This document shows positions 5,292 to 44,732 of a stretch of 64,000 nt of DNA, piece after piece. The stretch comes from Cetorhinus maximus. Lineage: Eukaryota. The notes beneath the pieces are model-generated. The model had not been told where the DNA came from, searched no databases, and saw only the letters and a list, made by a program, of their open reading frames with translations. Both the position numbers and the translations under genes were made by a program. Each line of letters opens with the position of its first letter. The first letter of the stretch is position 1. The DNA lies in contig NC_135906.1 of NCBI RefSeq assembly GCF_964194155.1, forward strand, positions 19,282,001-19,346,000. The letters run 5' to 3'.

Positions 5292-5919
5292 TGTTACAAT
5301 CCCCATGGGAGGACTGTAAACCAAAATAACCAAATTTACTGAATGACTCCCCCAAATGAAGAAATTACAAACAAGATTCTACTTTTTATGGCTTTTGGAA
5401 CCACATAAATTAAACATGAATTAACAAGCAAATGATACTACAAAACAAAGGTAAGTCCCTCTTTTTAAATGGTTGATACAACAAAGATCCATCTTACACA
5501 ACCATAAACATTCCCCTTCAGCATGTATGGCATTATGTTGCTACACAGTTCCATAATATGCTATTCTTTNNNNNNNNNNNNNNNNNNNNNNNNNNNNNNN
5601 NNNNNNNNNNNNNNNNNNNNNNNNNNNNNNNNNNNNNNNNNNNNNNNNNNNNNNNNNNNNNNNNNNNNNNNNNNNNNNNNNNNNNNNNNNNNNNNNNNNN
5701 NNNNNNNNNNNNNNNNNNNNNNNNNNNNNNNNNNNNNNNNNNNNNNNNNNNNNNNNNNNNNNNNNNNNNTCCAAGAAAAATGCAATTGATCCCTTTACAA
5801 TTGATGCAAGCTCTTTAAAGTTTTTTTCAAACATTCTTAAAAGCAATTAGAGATTCCAGACATTTTAAAGAAATTACAATTTTCCTTACTGTGTTGCTTC
5901 TGGGTCAAAGGTCATTGCA
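5292..5919 (-). repeat. 3' LTR (interrupted by assembly gap)
   Basis: Both gap flanks align by eye to the 10297-11273 copy (ctgtaaaccaaaat...; gcttctgggtcaaaggtcat). Confidence 0.85.
5570..5769. other. Assembly gap (200 N)
   Basis: Run of N. Confidence 1.
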
Positions 5920-11273: not shown

Positions 11274-12597
11274 ATGTATAAATTCAGCAAATGCAAAATG
11301 GGATATAAACAGCATCTGCAATTGTGGGTGTAAAATAGCAGATAATGCAACATATGAAACTTTGTACAGCAGGATATTTTATAACAGGGAGAGATAAACT
11401 TGCCAGCTCCTGTTTAGCAAAGGAGAATGATAGAAACAGTAAATAGTACAAGTAGTGTTATGGGTCAAAGCACATTAGACATTCTCATTTTCTTATCTAC
11501 TGTAAGTACTTTTACAGTTAAAGGATGAAAGTCTTAAATATTTATTTCAAAGAGACAATGCCTTAATGAAAAGGTATTGGGGAGAGTGAAGAACCACATG
11601 TTATTTTCATTATAATATTGTGCTTAAGTAGCCCTGCATTGTGTTTGTGTTGTGGGTTTGTAAATGCGAAGAGGGCATTTGTCAATCATTTGTTCAATTA
11701 TTAGTTCTCCTTTGGAAAGGGTGTGTAAAAGTGGAGAATAGAAAAAATTCAATGTAGGTATTTTGCTAGATGCTTGATCATTGTTATAAAATGAAAGATT
11801 GGTGCCACCACTTGGGCATTGTGCAGAAACTAGAAAATACACTGGGAATTAGTTTTGCTGTAGCCAGGGGTGGTAGGACCTAAACTAAATGTATATCAGT
11901 GATATATGTACTGACAGAGACATAACAGTGTACAGGACTTCCAAAACAATTCAACTGTATTAACACGCCCCTTTGAATGGTACTGGTGCTCTCTCACCAC
12001 CTGATATTTATTTTTGTGCACTATTTTTTCAGATCTGGAAGTCAGACTACTTTTTCCAGTTGGGGATAGTGGTATTATTCTTATCCAAATTAGCTCCAGA
12101 ACTAAGAAAATCACAAAAGTATTTGCAAATGGGCACTTTTTGTACAATCACTATACAAATGTTGTGATGAAAATAGTGCCAAAAGTCCAAAAGCTAAATT
12201 AGAAGCAAAGTGCAAACTACAAGTGTGTGTGTTTATATATACACATGTATGTTCATTGCACTTGCTTGACCAAAATCTGCAGCCAGTGTGCACTATTCCT
12301 GTCTGAACCAGTCTATTGCTATTGTATTTTGATATAGATCATTGCCGTCAAAAGAAAGCGAACTGCCTATAATGATTGATGTATTTCTTGTTTTGTCTTT
12401 TCACATGCTGTCTTTAATCTGTGCTTTATTGGCACAACGCCTTCTGAAATAATTCATCCAATCAAAATGCACTATGAAATTCATGTGTCCATCCATGTAT
12501 CTGTCTGTGTGTCCATGCCAACTAATTTTAAAACTGGTTGCAAATCAATCCCAATGCAATCCAATTACAATCATCCATCAACAACATCTACATATAG

Positions 12598-12603
12598 ACC
12601 ACG
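12598..12603 (+). CDS. CACNA1A: Candidate 6-nt alternative microexon of Cav2.1 (e31a/e31* equivalent), encodes Thr-Thr in the IVS3-S4 linker
   Basis: catatag|ACCACG|gttggt; no AG between 12359 and 12595; 8 YCAY motifs and ACTAAT upstream; phase 0 matches exon 32; position upstream of exon 32 matches known Cav2 e31a. Confidence 0.7.
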
Positions 12604-14764
12604 GTTGGTTTGTAATTTTTTTGAGCCTAATGCATACACAAACTACGTACCCTTGGCATGCCATGCAGCACTGAATTGTGAAATGCTGTTGCTTTCTTGG
12701 ATTGTGTTTTTTGGCATGGCTTTGGATTTTGTTTTGGCTCCCACCCACCTCTCACTTCAGTGCCCTCCTCCCAAAGATTCAAAAATAAGTTATATTAATA
12801 ATGGTTTATTAGTAATTGTGAAAAGTTAATTTAGCAGAACAAGGCTGTGCCTTCCACTGTTCTATCTGCTGTGTAGATAAGTCCAACCAGCCAATTAAAC
12901 CTGCAGAGGAAGGGTTAGCAAATTTCTCTTTGTCCTCAAAGACAAAATCAAAGTTCCAGAAAATGTAAATAAAAGTGAAATACTGCAGATACTGGAGGTC
13001 TGAATATGTATTTTTATATCCTACATTAGACATCCTTTTTAAATGTTTTTCTTGATGATGTGGTAGCTCAGGGACCATCATGTTCTATAAGGTGCTTCTC
13101 AACCATCAGCCTATCTTGATCAACTCTCTAATACTAGCTCCCCCTTTATAAAATCCGCCTTTCAACTCTCAAACCTATCTTTCAACCTTAACACCATCTC
13201 CCCTATCACCATATCCATCTTTCAACAATTAGATTACCAAAAGAAATGGGATTACATTATAGGGAAAGAGATTTTACCATAGGCATTGAAATTGCAGCAC
13301 AAATGTTTACAGGTACATCTTTTTTCAAATGGATGGCTTTTCAGGGCTTTAGAGCCAGAAAACAGTCCTTTTGGCTTCTGTTTCCTCTTCAAGCCTGTGG
13401 ACATCACTCCCTGCTTTGGACCCTTTCCTTGTGTTTGGTCACTGGTCCATTTAAAATTTGTGCACATGTATGACTGACCCACTGCCTCCATGTTACCTGA
13501 TATGAGTGATGGAGATTTTGAAATATCCATGGGTGACTGCTATTAAGAATCCTTCATACATACAGCAATATATTGAAAGAGATCCTGATGCTATATGTGT
13601 CACCTATTGACAACTTAAAATTTAATAATATAACTAAAATAAAATAATGAATATATTATTTGAATGCCAGTTATTAAATATGTTAGGAAGGGACAATATT
13701 GAGCAATGATTCATAGTGTCCTTTCACCTTTTAAGACCAGAGTTGAATCTAGTCCAAATTGATGATGAAGGTCTCTATAATAATGAATTTATCATTGCCT
13801 AGTGTGAAAGGCCTTTCCTTAGTGACAAAAATCTGTTACAAGAGTGGGGTGGTCCTTGCCAATAGGTTGCTGTGTCAGCCTTTTATACTTTATATCTTGG
13901 TGACCAGGCTACTGGAGTGTTGATACCACTTCACATGTGTGGAACACAATAGCCTGTCCAAGAATTCTTGTAGTGCAGTCTTGCTGCTTTTTTTTGTCAT
14001 TCTTTACCAAAGGGTATGATTTGGAAAAGCACCATGAAGAAATTATATAAGCCAGTATGGGCTTTTTTGAGAAGCCCAGGTTAAAAAAAAATCAAGGCTG
14101 CTAGTGCAGGGTAAAAGCAAAATTGAAAAAAGTGAAAAGAAAGACAAGGTAAATGAAGAGCCAGCGGTTAGGTTGAAGGATTTATTTTGATTATATATAT
14201 GTATTTGATTTACTTTTAAGTCTGCTCAACTTCTGTTTTTCTTTGCCATTCTGTGGGTATTTGATAGCTGGGTCATACCACTGAAAAATTCAAGCTGTTG
14301 CATTACTAAAAATGTACATTTACTGCATGCGTTTAAAGAGCTGCCGATTTATCAGTCCACAGCTCTTATCAGGGACTGCTACTGTGTTGTTGCTTTTTGC
14401 AGTTGGTACCCGTGCATGCTCACTGGAGTCTATGGATGTAAATCATAACTTTAAAAGGAATTGTTTTATTTCTGCAGAATGTTTGCAAACCCCACATAAC
14501 GTGCATTTTACTTGCAAGTAGACTCCACATTACGGCTTGCTAGTGTCAAAGAACAGTGCATTTGGTTGTGTTATAAATATATATACATATATACTTATAT
14601 ATATATTTTAACAAGGAAACCCATTCTTTCCCATGATTGGATGATAGCCAGACTTGTTATTTGGGAGTCTTCTTTAAGTGCCATTCTTGTCAAATGCAGC
14701 CAGCAGAGACAAGCAGACATTCATTTTTAACTGTCCTGTTTGTTCATTGACCTCGCTTTTGTAG

Positions 14765-14881
14765 AAAAATATTATCAACCTGAGCTTTCTACGGTTCTTC
14801 CGTGCTGCTCGACTTATCAAGCTCCTGAGACAGGGTTACACCATCCGTATCTTGATGTGGACATTTATCCAATCTTTTAAG
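14765..14881 (+). CDS. CACNA1A: Cav2.1 exon 32 equivalent (IVS4 voltage sensor)
   Basis: 117 nt, tttgtag|...|gtgaga; [39 protein letters not shown]. Confidence 0.96.
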
Positions 14882-19719: not shown

Positions 19720-20980
19720 GAGGTGCTTTGAGTGCATTGTGTCAATTGTCTTTTGGATCCTCTTTTTCCACTTATTGATCCGAAGTTTGCCCATCAGCAT
19801 CCTTAGTCAGTGGTTGATGCTGTTCTGACCTTGGTCCATCTGATCCAACAGCATAAGGATAGATTAGACAACTATGCTTGCGCTACCTTTGTTGATTTCT
19901 CTTCAGCTTTTAATACTATACAACCATTCAAGCTTAATGAAAAATTGAAAAACTTTGATGTCAATCCTACTCTCATACTTTGATCAATGATTTCCTTCTT
20001 AACAGGACCCAGTGGGTGTTAGGCTCTGAATAAATCCTAGAAACTATGTTAATGAATACTGGACCTCGTCAGGGTTGTGTGCTGTCACCTTTACTTTTCA
20101 TCCTCTATAAGAATGACTGTTGATCAGGGTATCAGTACATAACAATCCTGAAGTATGCTGATGATATGCTACTTGTGGGTATCATAAGGAATAATGAAGG
20201 AAACTATAGGAACTTGGTGGAGAAGTTCGTAAAATGTTCTGAATGAAAACAAGATGAAAGAACTAGTTATAGCCTTTAAGAAAAAGTCTGTTAATGATAT
20301 TGTTCCTGTGAAGATTCATGATGTGGATATTGAAATAGTTACTAAACACATGTATCTAGGTGTCAAAGTTGATAAGTTGAATTGGAGGGATCAGTGAACA
20401 GATGTGGTGGCCAAGGGACACACAATTATACTACCTCAGAAAATTAAAATCCTTTCAAGTAGACCCTACAGTCATGAAACTCTTCTTTCCGGCTGCAGTT
20501 GAGAATGTTATCCTTTTTGGATGTCTCGACTGGTACTGTTGTCTTAGGAAAGCAGACTCTTTAAGGGTACAGTGAGTTTGGAACGGGCAGAAAAGGTATT
20601 TGATGAAAGTAAAGAATGTCGTGAACAATGAGAATCACCCCTTGTTTCAGTATTACTGCTGGTTGTGTTCAGGTGAAAGGCTAAAATCCCTCAGATGCAG
20701 GACAAATCGGGCCCTGAATTCATTTGTGCGCTTCCCTGTACAAACTTTCAACAGAAATTTGATGTATTGATGAGAATATGCACTCGGGGTGGGACTCGAT
20801 GTCGGATTATTTTAACACATTGGAATAGTTTTACTACATATTTTCATTAAAGTTAGGTCTCTGATAGGGTGATTTTCTTTCTTTATTGTTATCATTCATT
20901 TATATGTAATTTTTAACAAACGAGCAATGCACCTGAAATGAATTTCCGTATGGATAATAACATGAAATTGAAATTGAAAT
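19720..20980 (+). mobile_element. Degraded Rex1/Babar-type LINE, 3' part
   Basis: FVDFSSAFNTIQP, QGCVLSPLLFILY, LKYADDMLLVGII; ends with a (GAAATT)n tail. Confidence 0.8.
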
Positions 20981-24744: not shown

Positions 24745-27389
24745 GGCAACGGAACCAGACTGACCACCCAGCATCAACCTAGGCACCGGAAATGACAATA
24801 GCAAACCAGCCCTGCTGATCCTGCAAAGTCCTCCTTACTAACATCTGGGGGCTAGTGCCAAAATTGGGAGAGCTGTCTCACAGATTAGTCAAGCAACAGC
24901 CTGACATAGTTATGCTCACAGGATCATACCTTACTGACAATGTCCCAGACATTACCATCACCATACCTGGTATCTGGTATGTCTTGTCCCACCGCAGGAC
25001 AGACCCAGCAGAGGTGGCGACACTGTAGTGGTATGCAGTCGGGAGGGAGTTGCCCTGGGACCCCTCAACATCGACTCTGGACCCCATGAAGTCTCATCGT
25101 ATCAGGTCTCATGGGCAAGGAAACCTCCTACTGATTCCCACGTCCCGTCTTCACATTGAGGATACCCTCCATCGTGTAGTGTGGCACTACCACCGTGCTA
25201 AACGGAATATATTTCAAACAGATCTAGGAACTCAAGACTGGGCAACCATGAGGCGTTGTGGGCCATCAACAGCAGCAGAATTGTACTCAGCTACAATATG
25301 TAACCTCATGGCCTGGCATACCTCCCACTGTACCATCACCAAGCCAGGGGGGATCAACCCTAGTTCAATAAAGAGTGCAGGAGGACATGCCAGGAGCAGC
25401 ACAGAGCTTACCTAAAAATGAGGTGTCAACCTCGTGAAGCTACAACACAGGACTACTTGTGCGCCAAACAGCATAAGCAGCAAGTGATAGACAGAGCTAA
25501 GCGATTCCACAACCAACGGATAAGAGCTAAGCGATTCCACAAACAACAGATCAGATCTAAGCTCTGCAGTCCTGCCACATCCAGTCGTGAATGGTGTTTG
25601 ACAATTAAACAACTCACTGGAAGAGGAGGCTCCATAAATAACTCCGTCCTCAATGATTGGGGAGCTCAGCACATCAGTGCAAAAGATAAGGCTGAAGCAT
25701 TTGCAACAATCTTCAGTCAGAAGTTCTGAGTGGATGATCCAGCTCAGCCTCCGCTGGAGGTCCCCAGCATCACACATGCCAGTCTTCAGCCAATTCGATT
25801 CACTCCACGTGATATCAAGAAACAACTGAAGGCATTGGATACTACAAAGCCTATGGGACCTGACAACATTCCGGCAATAATATTGAGACTTGTGCTCCAG
25901 AACTTGCCATGCCTGTAGCCAAGCTGTTCCAGGACAGCTACAACTTTGGCACCTACCCACAATGTAGAAAATTTCCCAGGTATGTCCTGTACACAAAAAG
26001 CAGGACATATCCAACCCAGCCAATTACAGCCCCATCAGTCTACACTCCATCATCAGAGAAGAGATGGAAGGAGTCATCGACAGTGCTTTCAAGCGGCAAT
26101 TTCTTACCAATAACCTGCTCATTGATGCCCAGTTTGGGTTCTGCCAGGGCCAATCATCTCCTGACTTCATTACAGCCTTGGTTCAAACATGGACAAAAGA
26201 GTTGAACTGCAGAGTTGAGGTGAGAATGAACGCCTTTGACATCAAGGCTGCATTTGACCGAGTGTGGCATCAAGGCACCCTAGCAAAACTGGAGTCAAAG
26301 GGAATTAGGGGAAAACTCTCCGCTGGTTGGAGTCATACCTAGCATGAAGGAAGCTGGTTGTGGTTGTTGGAGGCCAATCATCTAGTTCCAGGGCATCACT
26401 AAAGGAGTTCCTCAGGATAGTGCCCTAGGCTCAACCATCTTCAGCTGCTTCATCAATGACCTTCCTCCCATCATAAGGTCAGAAGTGGGGATGTTCGCTG
26501 ACTATTGCACAATGCTCAGCACCACTTATGGCTCCTCAGATATTGAAGCAGTCCATGTCCAAATGCAGCAAGACCTGGACAATATCCAGGCTTCAGCTGA
26601 CAAGTGGCAAGTAACATTCGCATGCACAAGTGTCAGGCAATGACCATCCCCAACAAGAGAGAATCCAACTATCGCCCCTTGACATGCAATGGCATTACCA
26701 TCACTGAATCCCCCATTATCAACATCCTGGGGGTTACCATTGATCAGAAACTGAACTGAACTAGCCATATAAATAGTGTGGCTACAAGAGCAGGTCAGAG
26801 GCTAAGAAACCTGTGATGAGCAACTCACTGCCTGACTCCCCAAAGCCTGTCCACCATCTACAAGGCACAAGTCAGGAGTGTGATGGAACACTTGCCTGGG
26901 TGAGTGCAACTCCTACAACACTCAAGAGGCTTGACACCATCCAGGACAAAGCAGCCCACTTGATTGCCGCCCTTTCCATAAACATTCACTCCTTCCACCA
27001 CTGACACACAGTGGCAGCAGTGTGTATCATCTACAAGATGCACTGCAGCAACTCACCAAGACTCCTTAGGCAGTACCTTCCAAACCCACGACCACTACCA
27101 TCTAGGAGGACAAGGGCAGCAGACACATGGGAACACCACCACCTGGAAGTTCCCCTCCAAGCCACACACCTTCCTGACTTGGAAATATATCGCCATTCCT
27201 TCACTGTCGCTGGGTCAAAATCCTGGAACTCCCTCCCTAACAGCACTGTGGGTGTACCTACATCACATGGACTGCAGCGGTTCAAGAAGACAGCTCATCA
27301 CCACCTTCTCAAGGGCAATTAGGGATGGGCAATAAATGCTGGTCAAGCCAGTGACGCCCACATCCCATAAATGAATTTTTTTTTTTAAA
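24745..27389 (+). mobile_element. CR1-clade LINE, second family, long degraded ORF2 (endonuclease remnant plus RT)
   Basis: QQPDIVMLT, KPMGPDNIPA, DAQFGF, AFDIKAAFDRVWH, GMFADY; 3' end aataaatgctgg...aatgaatttt; many stops and frameshifts. Confidence 0.88.
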
Positions 27390-30300
27390 GCCTATGAGTT
27401 GTAGTTATTATTGTTGCTCATCAACACTTAACAGTCCTTTAACTATGACTTTTGGATCGCTTATGAGCCCCAGTTATGATGTGTGAGTGAGGAGGGTCTT
27501 TCATTCTCACGCATATTCAAAGGAATGAGCCGCAAACTCATTCTTAGTTAAGGTTTTAGAAAAGCACTGAAGACCTCTTGCCTTTCAGTGTTCACCTGTA
27601 ACAGTATAAACATGAGAACCAATATTCCAGACCAAAATAAATCAATGTAGCCTGCTTGTTATCACCAGGCGAATATCTGGAGTTTGTTGCTGAGTGAAGT
27701 CCTGAGTGTGTGAGCACCATCAGTGCTGGCCCTATAGGAGCACTTGTCTTGACAGTCACTCATGGTTGCTGTGCAGGAGGTGACCTCATTGTCATCCTGA
27801 CTGAAAGGAGGGAGTGGGATAACAGAAGATAGTCTCGAGGAATCTGGAAAAGGGGAAAATTTAAGGGAAAACTGTAAAACTAGTTATTTTACAAATATTT
27901 CCAAGAGCCTGTTCCCAGAAATAGGTAGATTAGAACCCCTCCAATTTCTGGAGCAGGAGCTGTCATGGTGGGATTTGAACCCATATCCCAGGGCATTAGT
28001 CTGGGGCTCTGGAAAACTAGTGCAGTGATAGTACCACTACCCCACATCTCCCCCTATCCTTGGTTAGATTGGATTCCGGCCAGCTGCTCACATTAACCGC
28101 TCTTAGAAAATGTCAGTTAATTAATCCCCCTTCTGGTGGGAGAGGTGAGTCTTTAGATGTCAACTTAACACTGAGGTAACAACTAAAATCATTTGAAGGA
28201 GTAGGTCTTTGGATAAACTGGATACAATGAATGACTACTGTATGTATTAGTGAAGAAAACACATTGATCACTCACTGAGTGAATCATTAAAATCACAATT
28301 CCCTCCTGCCTTCCCCATCAGTCACAAAAATGAATAAAAAATAGTTTGCAACAGTCTCAGCCTTTTTTGTGCTTCTTTATATAATTGAAATTCCTCTCAA
28401 ATATCCTAACCTTGTCCCCAGTATGTTATGTGTGAATCCTGTTAGTTTTGTCAGCTGTGAAGCAATTACTGTTCAGGAAAGTGATAGTTGTATAAAATTG
28501 TGTCATTTGAAAAAAAGTGTTTAGGACAAGTTTTGTAACAAAAATACATACCTAATCTCAACTTCATTCTGTAAAATTTAAAGTTGTATTGTATTGTCAA
28601 GGTCTGACCTGGCTCCAAGATGTTATAAAATCATGTCATTCATTTGCTTATTTTTAAAACATCAAAGACATAGGCCAGAAAGGGCCCGGCCCCAATTACA
28701 GTTCTGTCCTAAACCTCCATCAGGGTGACAGTAGGAGCCCTGATTAGAAAACGTACATAACAATATATGGGTGAGGCCAAGATAACTGGCTCAGGTGTGA
28801 TACACCTTGCTTTCCATTGTTGAAGAGCCTACAGACACTCAGTAGCTAGATACACATTAGGAATGACTACTTAAACATGGACAGTCAACATTTGTGGATT
28901 TTACCCCAGCAATTTTTTCAGGAGGGCAGAGGATAAAATGAGAAGAATATTTATCATGATAGTAAGAAGATTAGGGGATGTTCTATGGCTCAAAATCATT
29001 AAGGGAGCTTAAAATTGTAGTTGATTTTACCAGTGAGAGAAAAGAATTTAAACACCTGAATCAACATCTAATTGTTCTCATAATTCATTAAAAAATGAAA
29101 AGACTGTTTTTATTAAATAAAGATCGAGAAACCTAATTTCATTGGATCAAAATAAGTAAAATAGTTACATAAATCCACTGAGCCTGGGATCAAAATGAAA
29201 ATGTTGCAGTACCAGTTTTCTGCTACATGACGTATCAAAATGAAGATTCATCATTAAAGAGGATATTCGACAGAGCTGATCCAGCCAAATTGTTCACTTA
29301 GTAGAAACATTCAAATATCAGTGGATAAGTAGGAAAATTAGGAATAATAAGAAAAGCAAGTGGCATTTGTTCACACTAAGTGAATTAGACAGGCGACAAG
29401 CCATTGAATCTTAAGAGTATAAATGAGTTCCAGAGCTAAGCTGCCCACTTACAATTTTAATTTAATTAGAACATGAATTTGACCAGCTACATCCAGGTTC
29501 CTATGATTTTTTTTTGGGTTCACTAATCCCCAACAATTTACCGAAGTGGAGCAGTTAAATTTGCCTTTAGATTATGGAAAGGGTCATTTACGTGAATTGA
29601 ATGAGCAGGGGAGGTCGTCTTTGAATAAAGAAATTAAATAAAATAGAAATAACGTTCAACAAGAACAAGAGAAGATTGGAATGAGAAAGGCCCTTCAAGT
29701 CATCAAGCACATTACCACAGTCTAACATACCAAATCATTGACCTCACCATTCACTCCACCAAGCTCCTTCGAAAGTCTCAGTACAGTAATGTTAAGAGGA
29801 CGTTAAACAAAATTCCTTTGTAGTTGGTATATAGCGGGCAAATGCAATTAATAAGCAAGGATTGTTCACTAACCCCCAACATCTATGGACTGATGAAATC
29901 CTGAATTCTTTATAAGACTTTAGAAAAGAAGATTTTGTATATGAATTTATAAAGAATATATAGACATAATTTCAACAGATTCAGCCCATAATTCAGTTTC
30001 TTATTGTAGTAAGAAGTTACTATGGCGAGAAGTTGCTGCAACAGGCCATACCACTCTTTTTCATACAAGTGGACAGGGATGACATTTGCCTTGTAGATGG
30101 CCTATACCATGGGTCAATATGGGCCCCTACTTTTCCTAGATAATCTAATTGCTGGATCCAGTCAGGACCACATCCAATTGCATGGGTTGCTTGGTCCTAA
30201 TGCTATAAGGACCTCTATAAGTGTAGTTCTATTACTCAGTTTACTTGATTAATTAGGTTATCAATGTTGTAATAGATTTAGTGCTACCGCCAAAAGCTAC

Positions 30301-33716: not shown

Positions 33717-33833
<117 letters not shown>

Positions 33834-34294
33834 TGACTTCCACTAACCTACCAACCTAAGCATCAATGAATGAGTGTGCTTTCTCTTTTTTTGCATTTCT
33901 TGAAGTAGAATGTGCAGGAAAATGCAGTCACCTAGAGAAAATAGCATGGAAATGCACTGACCAACCTCAACCTCAGCCATTGCTGCTTGTCGTAACCAAT
34001 ATCACTCGGCATCTTGGGTTACAGTAGTGTTCATTACTGTAGGGACAGAAACTGCATTGACAAAGACTGGCATCTCCTCACAACAGGCAGAGGACTTTTC
34101 ATCAAGACTAAAAGAAAATGCTCTCTGTACTTCTATGCAATATTTTGACATTGCATAGATATTGGGTGAATTTCTGCAATTGACAGACCCATAAAGAATA
34201 ACCTTGTAATTTTTTTGTTTTTGTTTGTTTCCTTCCATTTTTCTTTTCGTTCGTCTTGGATACATCTCCTTTTTGCCTCATTTCTGCTACAAAG

Positions 34295-34391
34295 TGGCCG
34301 CATCAGTTACACTGATATGTATGAGATGTTGAGACACATGTCTCCGCCCTTAGGCCTGGGGAAGAAATGCCCTGCGCGAGTTGCTTATAAG
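34295..34391 (+). CDS. CACNA1A: Cav2.1 mutually exclusive exon 37b (EFb)
   Basis: 97 nt, ctacaaag|...|gtagaa; [32 protein letters not shown]; same length and phase as 37a. Confidence 0.95.
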
Positions 34392-43499: not shown

Positions 43500-43680
43500 A
43501 TGAGTTCCTCAGGATAGTACCCTAGGCCCAACTAACTTCAGTTGTTTTATCAATGACCTTCCCTTCATCATCATGTCAGAAATGGGAATGTTCACTGATG
43601 ATTGCACAGTGCTCAGTACCGATCCTCAGACACTGAAGCAGTCTGTGTGTCCATATGCAGCAAGACCTGGACAGCATTCC
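43500..43680 (+). mobile_element. Fragment of the CR1-clade LINE seen at 24745-27389
   Basis: gagttcctcaggatagt...atcaatgaccttcc...gcagcaagacctggac matches about 26405-26590. Confidence 0.85.
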
Positions 43681-44732
43681 GTCACGGCGGGGTCGGGGCC
43701 ATAAAATGTGGTGAACCGTTCAAACGTCCATTGACTTCGGTGGGACTGGAAAATCTCGCTAGCGGGAGGGGCCATAAAATTCCACCCTGTGTCAGATCTC
43801 TCATGCACCTTTTGTAAATAATGACATAACTGCTGTAGATAGAGAGCAAATACTGACACACAGCTGGAGACAATCTGCAGATACTCATATTGACACAGTC
43901 TGAGGACCAACAGTTCCCTGTCCTAACTTGAGTTTTAACTGTCCATGGGAACACAGTGCTGTCAATACAGAGATCCTTTTGCCAGTGTACAGAAATACAA
44001 ATGTGTCAGTAAGTCAATAAATATAGAGGTCTAATGACTTCACAGCCCCTAGGGTACCGTTAAGGAACCCGAGTTGGAACATGTATATCTTAAATGATTT
44101 CCACTGTTCCTTATATACAGCATGACGATTTTTGGACACTTCTTCAAATACCTCTGCCATTTTTCAGCTCTCACTCTCTCATCCCCACTCTCTCATACTG
44201 TCTCTGCTTATCTTCCTCTCCCCATTATCTCTCGCACTCTCTTTCTCTTCACCCCCTTTCCATTACTTGCATTACACTTTCCTCAAAAATAACCTTGAAA
44301 CCATTTCATAGTCTCCAGATTTAATTGCATCAAATGCACTATCTTTGTCCATTCCTAATTCACTCAAGAACCTCTGGATGCTGCTGTTAATTATCCTTGA
44401 ATAATGCTACATTGCATTGAGAGAGCAGATTTTAAGCAATAGCATTTATAGCATAACTGTGAATGAAACACAATTGTCTTATCCTTAGAAGCTTCTGTGT
44501 GAACTTGACTGCACTGCTTGTCCTGTGGGGTACTTGTGCTGCATGCTGCATGCTTCTGCATCACTTGTGTTTGTTAACTGGATGTCAGTACCTCAAGTGG
44601 AACTGGGAATGACCATTGCATTGTTTACTGTTCCACTGATTATTTGTGTGCATCGTGTTAAATTGCAATGATGACCTGCGTATTTGCATCTGTACACAAA
44701 TGGAATGAACTGTTTGACAATGTTTAAACTAA

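Follow-up and report, generated by a model that had tools for sequence, protein, structure and literature searches.

A candidate exon 31a in shark CACNA1A: a predicted six-nucleotide Thr-Thr microexon with a homologous element in CACNA1B

Six nucleotides in intron 31 of a Cav2 channel gene of the shark Cetorhinus maximus, ACCACG, probably correspond by orthology to exon 31a of mammalian CACNA1A; as a cassette exon they would add Thr-Thr to the channel. This orthology reading rests on the position of the candidate, its frame, the AG-free zone that precedes it and the homology of both of its flanks to CACNA1B. The switch itself is old and has already been described for the two mammalian genes; the predicted Thr-Thr peptide is new. 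Unless another locus is named, positions refer to the window, the whole 64,000-nt stretch of DNA that was analysed (Table 1).

Results

Gene assignment and the candidate microexon

By sequence, the gene that carries the candidate is shark CACNA1A (Cav2.1), because retrieval with exon 19, the E-values of a downstream exon and the exon identities all favour Cav2.1. Exon 19, which lies upstream of the window, retrieved P/Q-type proteins as its top matches. One downstream exon matched human Cav2.1 with an E-value of 1e-15, compared with 4e-8 for Cav2.2, and Cav2.3 also scored worse. Exons of the window were 79–87% identical to cartilaginous-fish (shark and ray) Cav2.1 models, 69–73% identical to bony vertebrates and 61% identical to a bird Cav2.2.

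Intron 31 is 23,455 nt long and includes one assembly gap of 200 N at 5570–5769. The junction of exons 31 and 32 is in phase 0, and ACC ACG would be read in frame without a stop; inclusion would change ...TEFW-KNIINL... to ...TEFW-TT-KNIINL... A preliminary description, made from the letters alone, had proposed a Cav2 gene with an exon 31a slot, a six-nucleotide exon TAG/ACCACG/GTTGGT encoding Thr-Thr in frame with exon 32, and a weak donor. The sequence and the phase-0 junction bear out the letters of the candidate exon and its frame, the slot proves to lie between exons 31 and 32 of CACNA1A, and the donor is indeed weak, matching five of nine consensus positions (seven for exon 31 and six for exon 32).

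Table 1 Positions of the candidate exon 31a, its predicted signals and related exons
Feature	Position	Strand	Details
Exon 31	L002:1226–1309, 8.7 kb before the window		84 nt; ends TGG/GTAAGT
AG exclusion zone	12359–12595	+	237 nt; previous AG 12357–12358, next AG 12596–12597
Predicted distant branch point	12376–12380	+	TTGAT, branch A at 12379; 5' end of the zone; paralogue TTTGAT at −213, TCTGAT at −199
U-rich polypyrimidine tract	12381–12405	+	19/25 pyrimidines; paralogue 20/25 and 22/25
Eight YCAY motifs, candidate Nova sites	12401–12578	+	Starts 12401, 12454, 12481, 12489, 12493, 12513, 12571, 12575
ACTAAT, earlier branch-point candidate	12521–12526	+	No counterpart in the paralogue
Acceptor block	12571–12597	+	A/C-rich; tandem YCAY (TCATCCAT) and TAG; 23/27 identical to CACNA1B intron 31
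Candidate exon 31a, ACCACG	12598–12603	+	TAG/ACCACG/GTTGGT; would add Thr-Thr to the domain IV S3–S4 linker
Weak donor	12604–12611	+	GTTGGTTT; 8/8 identical in the CACNA1B paralogue
Exon 32	14765–14881	+	Cav2 channel matches; end of the S3–S4 linker and IVS4 voltage sensor
Candidate CACNA1B exon 31a, CAATGG	G000:C10:30595416–30595421		Would encode Gln-Trp; 213-nt AG-free zone, 7 YCAY (L019, L034)
Exon 24a, SLMG	L005:5436–5447 (G000:C29:19247436–19247447)		12 nt; same CACNA1A gene; also in catshark model XP_038640697.1

A homologous element in CACNA1B

The same genome contains two further Cav2 genes, one on C10 and one on C18. The C10 gene scored best with Cav2.2 (1415 bits, compared with 1144–1198 bits for three Cav2.1 proteins); the C18 gene we take, from sequence motifs, to be Cav2.3-like (CACNA1E). 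The C10 element ends TAG/CAATGG/GTTGGTTT and has the longest plus-strand AG-free run of the DNA examined there. When the CACNA1A and CACNA1B elements were compared, 23 of the 27 acceptor-side bases and all eight donor bases were identical, against one of six in the exon itself. The best blastn match between the whole introns (23.5 kb and 11.4 kb) fell on 12568–12611, with 79.5% identity over 44 nt and an E-value of 4e-4. Global alignment of the two zones gave a score of 96.5, compared with a maximum of 22.5 in 500 shuffles (z = 9.1); taken by itself, the sequence ahead of the acceptor block scored 50.5, likewise above all 500 shuffles (maximum 27.0).

The element is not a repeat, because an 18-nt motif built from both elements has only two exact matches in the 4-Gb genome, both by construction, and 47 matches with one mismatch. 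No such element was found in the ~3.1-kb intron 31 of CACNA1E (G000:C18:73969670–73972740), which contains GGGCATT-like repeats and a longest AG-free run of 55 nt. A metagenome scan with the shared acceptor-donor motif gave no match, a result uninformative for vertebrate DNA.

Intron conservation between paralogues of this age argues strongly for function, and what has been kept is precisely the splice signals and the fixed six-nucleotide spacing; the comparison pinpoints the intron bases that survived since duplication. Because a homologous element is present in CACNA1B, the slot is, by these alignments, older than the Cav2.1/Cav2.2 duplication, as the literature already implied. This age is no surprise, since exon 31a is stated in PMC5008151 to be present in every vertebrate Cacna1b gene, and an alternative exon at the same place is described for Drosophila in PMC10657410. 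The earlier suggestion that the slot predates the NP sequence gains from the CACNA1B element, but its argument from a shared Thr is weakened by the QW that the Cav2.2 slot of the same genome would encode.

Other readings of the six nucleotides

The element might instead be a relic, or have a regulatory role within the intron, with flanks kept for protein binding or for exon 31–32 splicing and six bases no longer meaningfully included in sharks. We regard this as unlikely. It would fit the weak donor, the divergence of the exon bases between the paralogues (one of six in common) and the gene models: the insert is missing from all 21 linker-covering cartilaginous-fish Cav2.1 models, which are found among the 22 listed of 33 members in two clusters and one of which may come from the same assembly. 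The AG, the exact six-nucleotide spacing, the stop-free frame and GTTGGTTT have nevertheless been kept in both paralogues. The models, moreover, are weak evidence against inclusion, because mammalian Cacna1b exon 31a likewise has a very low level in brain and no entry in the reference annotation, according to PMC5008151. That gene predictors would probably miss the exon had been anticipated, and none of the same 21 models carries it; exon 24a is present in one of them.

With a real acceptor, a donor further downstream would produce a frameshifting poison exon of 10 or 14 nt that lowers channel mRNA via nonsense-mediated decay. GT dinucleotides do occur 10 nt (TTG/GTTTGT) and 14 nt (TTT/GTAATT) past the acceptor. 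The 14-nt donor, however, lacks a G at both −1 and +5 and is not matched in the paralogue, GTTGGT, the six-nucleotide donor, is the only one that the two genes share unchanged, and the known orthologous inserts are in frame, making a poison exon very improbable.

Least likely is a true exon 31a at some other place in intron 31, such as the assembly gap, with the 12598 site a chance AG-N6-GT: although intron 31 has 63 such sites and AG-free runs of ~200 nt occur on the non-coding strand as well, the 12598 site exceeds all others in its AG-free run (237 nt, the next being 75 nt), the paralogue homology falls on it, and, the 200-N gap aside, none of the other 62 encodes NP, SP, NL or ET, so that the better microexon that would have told against the original proposal was not found among them.

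AG exclusion zone and predicted branch point

The 237-nt zone, correctly delimited in the preliminary description, exceeds every other AG-free run on the plus strand of the locus, over 164 kb that contain 11,016 AGs; the next plus-strand run is 190 nt and the longest on the minus strand is 205 nt. Third-order Markov simulations of the window never reached 237 nt (0 of 100; maximum 178 nt). At this locus, long AG-free zones do not mark microexons in general, because the other long runs (190, 172 and 156 nt) showed no obvious microexon by inspection, and because the zone of exon 24a is only 57 nt. Exon 24a differs from exon 31a further in lying in another domain and in having its inclusion promoted by Nova2.

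Distant-branch-point exons, as described in PMC1431707, characteristically have their branch point and pyrimidine tract together at the 5' end of a long AG exclusion zone; their acceptor is located by a scan that stops at the first AG, and the stretch scanned holds regulatory elements; the same source's estimate is that only a half to a fifth of zones of at least 100 nt mark distant branch points. Both shark paralogues show this layout: a branch-like motif, with the best tract directly behind it, lies at the far end of a long zone. Next to the acceptor, by comparison, only 11 of 20 bases are pyrimidines for the candidate exon and 9 of 20 for the paralogue, as opposed to 15 of 20 before exon 32 of either gene. 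These features suggest that branching probably occurs near 12379 rather than at a proximal site. ACTAAT at 12521, the branch point favoured earlier, was set aside: it is absent from the paralogue and is followed by only 13 pyrimidines in 25 bases.

Like PTB exon 11 and GABBR1 exon 23, which PMC1431707 describes, the shark candidate combines a long zone with a 5' tract and a branch-like motif, and has none adjoining the acceptor. It differs from them in that its branch site is predicted from sequence, TTGAT being a modest match. CACN genes are not mentioned in the main text of that article, and among the literature searched there was no paper on a distant branch point for exon 31a.

YCAY motifs and Nova

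Of the Nova-type YCAY cluster proposed at first, the eight motifs are present, but they are not enriched: among 1,272 background windows, 10% hold at least eight, and the zone itself, after dinucleotide shuffling, has 9.3 on average. Four of the eight stand in register with the paralogue, a borderline result in that 5.4% of 500 shuffles reach as many. The tandem TCATCCAT, 25 nt before the AG, is identical in the paralogue.

According to the text of PMC12149502, Nova2 favours exclusion of exon 31a from both mammalian transcripts, Cav2.1 and Cav2.2; the table of that paper contradicts its text by giving exon 31 a plus. Skipping of Cav2.2 exon 31a through Nova2 is also stated in PMC5633781, and promotion of mammalian exon 31a skipping in PMC3849787 and PMC10676324. 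In PMC2014790, brain-specific splicing conserved in chicken and zebrafish was predicted from YCAY clusters that were themselves conserved. From the orthology, we infer that Nova may repress shark exon 31a.

Comparison with known forms of exon 31a

The shark candidate resembles mammalian CACNA1A exon 31a in gene, intron, phase, length of six nucleotides, its two IVS3–S4 residues and the upstream YCAY motifs; it differs in that it is predicted from sequence and would encode TT, not NP. With mammalian CACNA1B exon 31a, which encodes ET, it shares the paralogous slot, a Thr as second residue and six nucleotides in a long intron. That exon, too, is poorly annotated (PMC5008151). The difference is that the shark gene is Cav2.1, and that the Cav2.2 slot of the same shark would give QW. 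No paper on exon 31a in sharks or other cartilaginous fish was found; Allen 2010, Lin 1999, Li 2024 and Lipscombe and Andrade 2015 may already align the flanks.

In Cav2.1, the NP insert alters omega-agatoxin IVA affinity. The toxin binds near the IVS3–S4 loop in human Cav2.1, as described in PMC12737659, and zebrafish Cav2.1 is reported in PMC7939481 to be relatively insensitive to it. P/Q pharmacology is therefore not transferable to the shark, and we drop the label "P/Q-type switch" that was given to the site at first.

Peptide drift in the slot

Of 289 linker-covering database proteins, 246 lack an insert. NP is found in 27, M in nine, NL in two, and SP, NS and ET in one each; the remaining two inserts, VS and VST, were treated as likely intron read-through and left uncounted as alleles. 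M is carried by teleosts, NL by Polypterus and a teleost, SP by the coelacanth, NS by a bat and ET by a Cav2.2-like protein (P0091). The single Met in several teleost Cav2.1 models (P0208, P0228, P0231, P0449–P0457) would correspond to a 3-nt microexon.

Because bony-vertebrate Cav2.1 also has SP, NL, NS and M, NP marks the mammalian form and not the slot, as far as these sequences go; shark Cav2.1, whose slot would encode TT, has neither NP nor ET. When the predicted TT and QW are added to the database peptides, flanks and length look constrained and the residues do not. A second-place Thr, common to shark Cav2.1 and to ET, could be ancestral, a lead that comes from one species rather than from an exon-allele tree.

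A parallel is offered by exon 24a of the same shark gene, which encodes SLMG, a peptide closer to the SFMG of mammalian Cav2.2 than to the SSTR of mammalian Cav2.1 (both peptides as given in PMC10657410 and PMC11580629). Comparison of intron 24 between CACNA1A and the CACNA1B paralogue yielded only repeat-like matches common to both.

Proposed mechanism and implications

In the mechanism that we propose, the spliceosome would branch ~220 nt upstream of exon 31a, near 12379, at the only good pyrimidine tract, and scanning from this distant branch would run to the first AG, the exon 31a acceptor. AG would be excluded over 237 nt because the acceptor is the first AG scanned from there. A repressor, probably Nova, may bind within the scanned stretch at the YCAYs that are conserved; together with the weak donor, it would keep the exon out of most transcripts in brain, whereas some other neurons would include it. 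Once included, the two extra residues would lengthen the IVS3–S4 linker and tune activation kinetics, and their identity appears to be of little weight. The domain IV insert is described in PMC10657410 as affecting activation kinetics.

A broader reading is offered tentatively. Cav2 exon 31a may be a distant-branch-point microexon, with a 200-nt scanning zone that contains Nova sites, whose architecture has been kept in Cav2.1 and Cav2.2 since the duplication while the peptide was free to drift (TT, QW, NP, SP, NL, M, ET). Shark Cav2.1 peptides would then be Cav2.2-like in both voltage-sensor microexons (TT beside ET, SLMG beside SFMG), and NP and SSTR would be bony-vertebrate innovations.

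If this holds, deep-intronic variants that create an AG at most ~220 nt upstream of the human exons would be worth considering as causes of altered Cav2 splicing. On the exon 31a reading itself, a well-studied neuronal splicing switch would extend to cartilaginous fish in both paralogues, with two unannotated isoforms, Cav2.1 +TT and Cav2.2 +QW, and selection would seem to act on regulated lengthening of the linker, not on particular residues. Shark exon 31a opens no new kind of system.

Other features of the locus

The window introns also contain broken fragments at ~700–1950, 19800–20400, 24800–27400 and 43500–43700, which, from motifs in their translations, are presumably of LINE-like reverse transcriptase. 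Exon 20 (L009:6889–7356) has an expanded Asn-Pro-rich repeat, which exceeds that of the coelacanth model P0136 by ~60 residues. Exon 37 is present as a tandem duplicated pair at 33735–33830 and 34290–34391, the known mutually exclusive EF-hand exons, and this pair recurs, its order unchanged, in the C10 paralogue.
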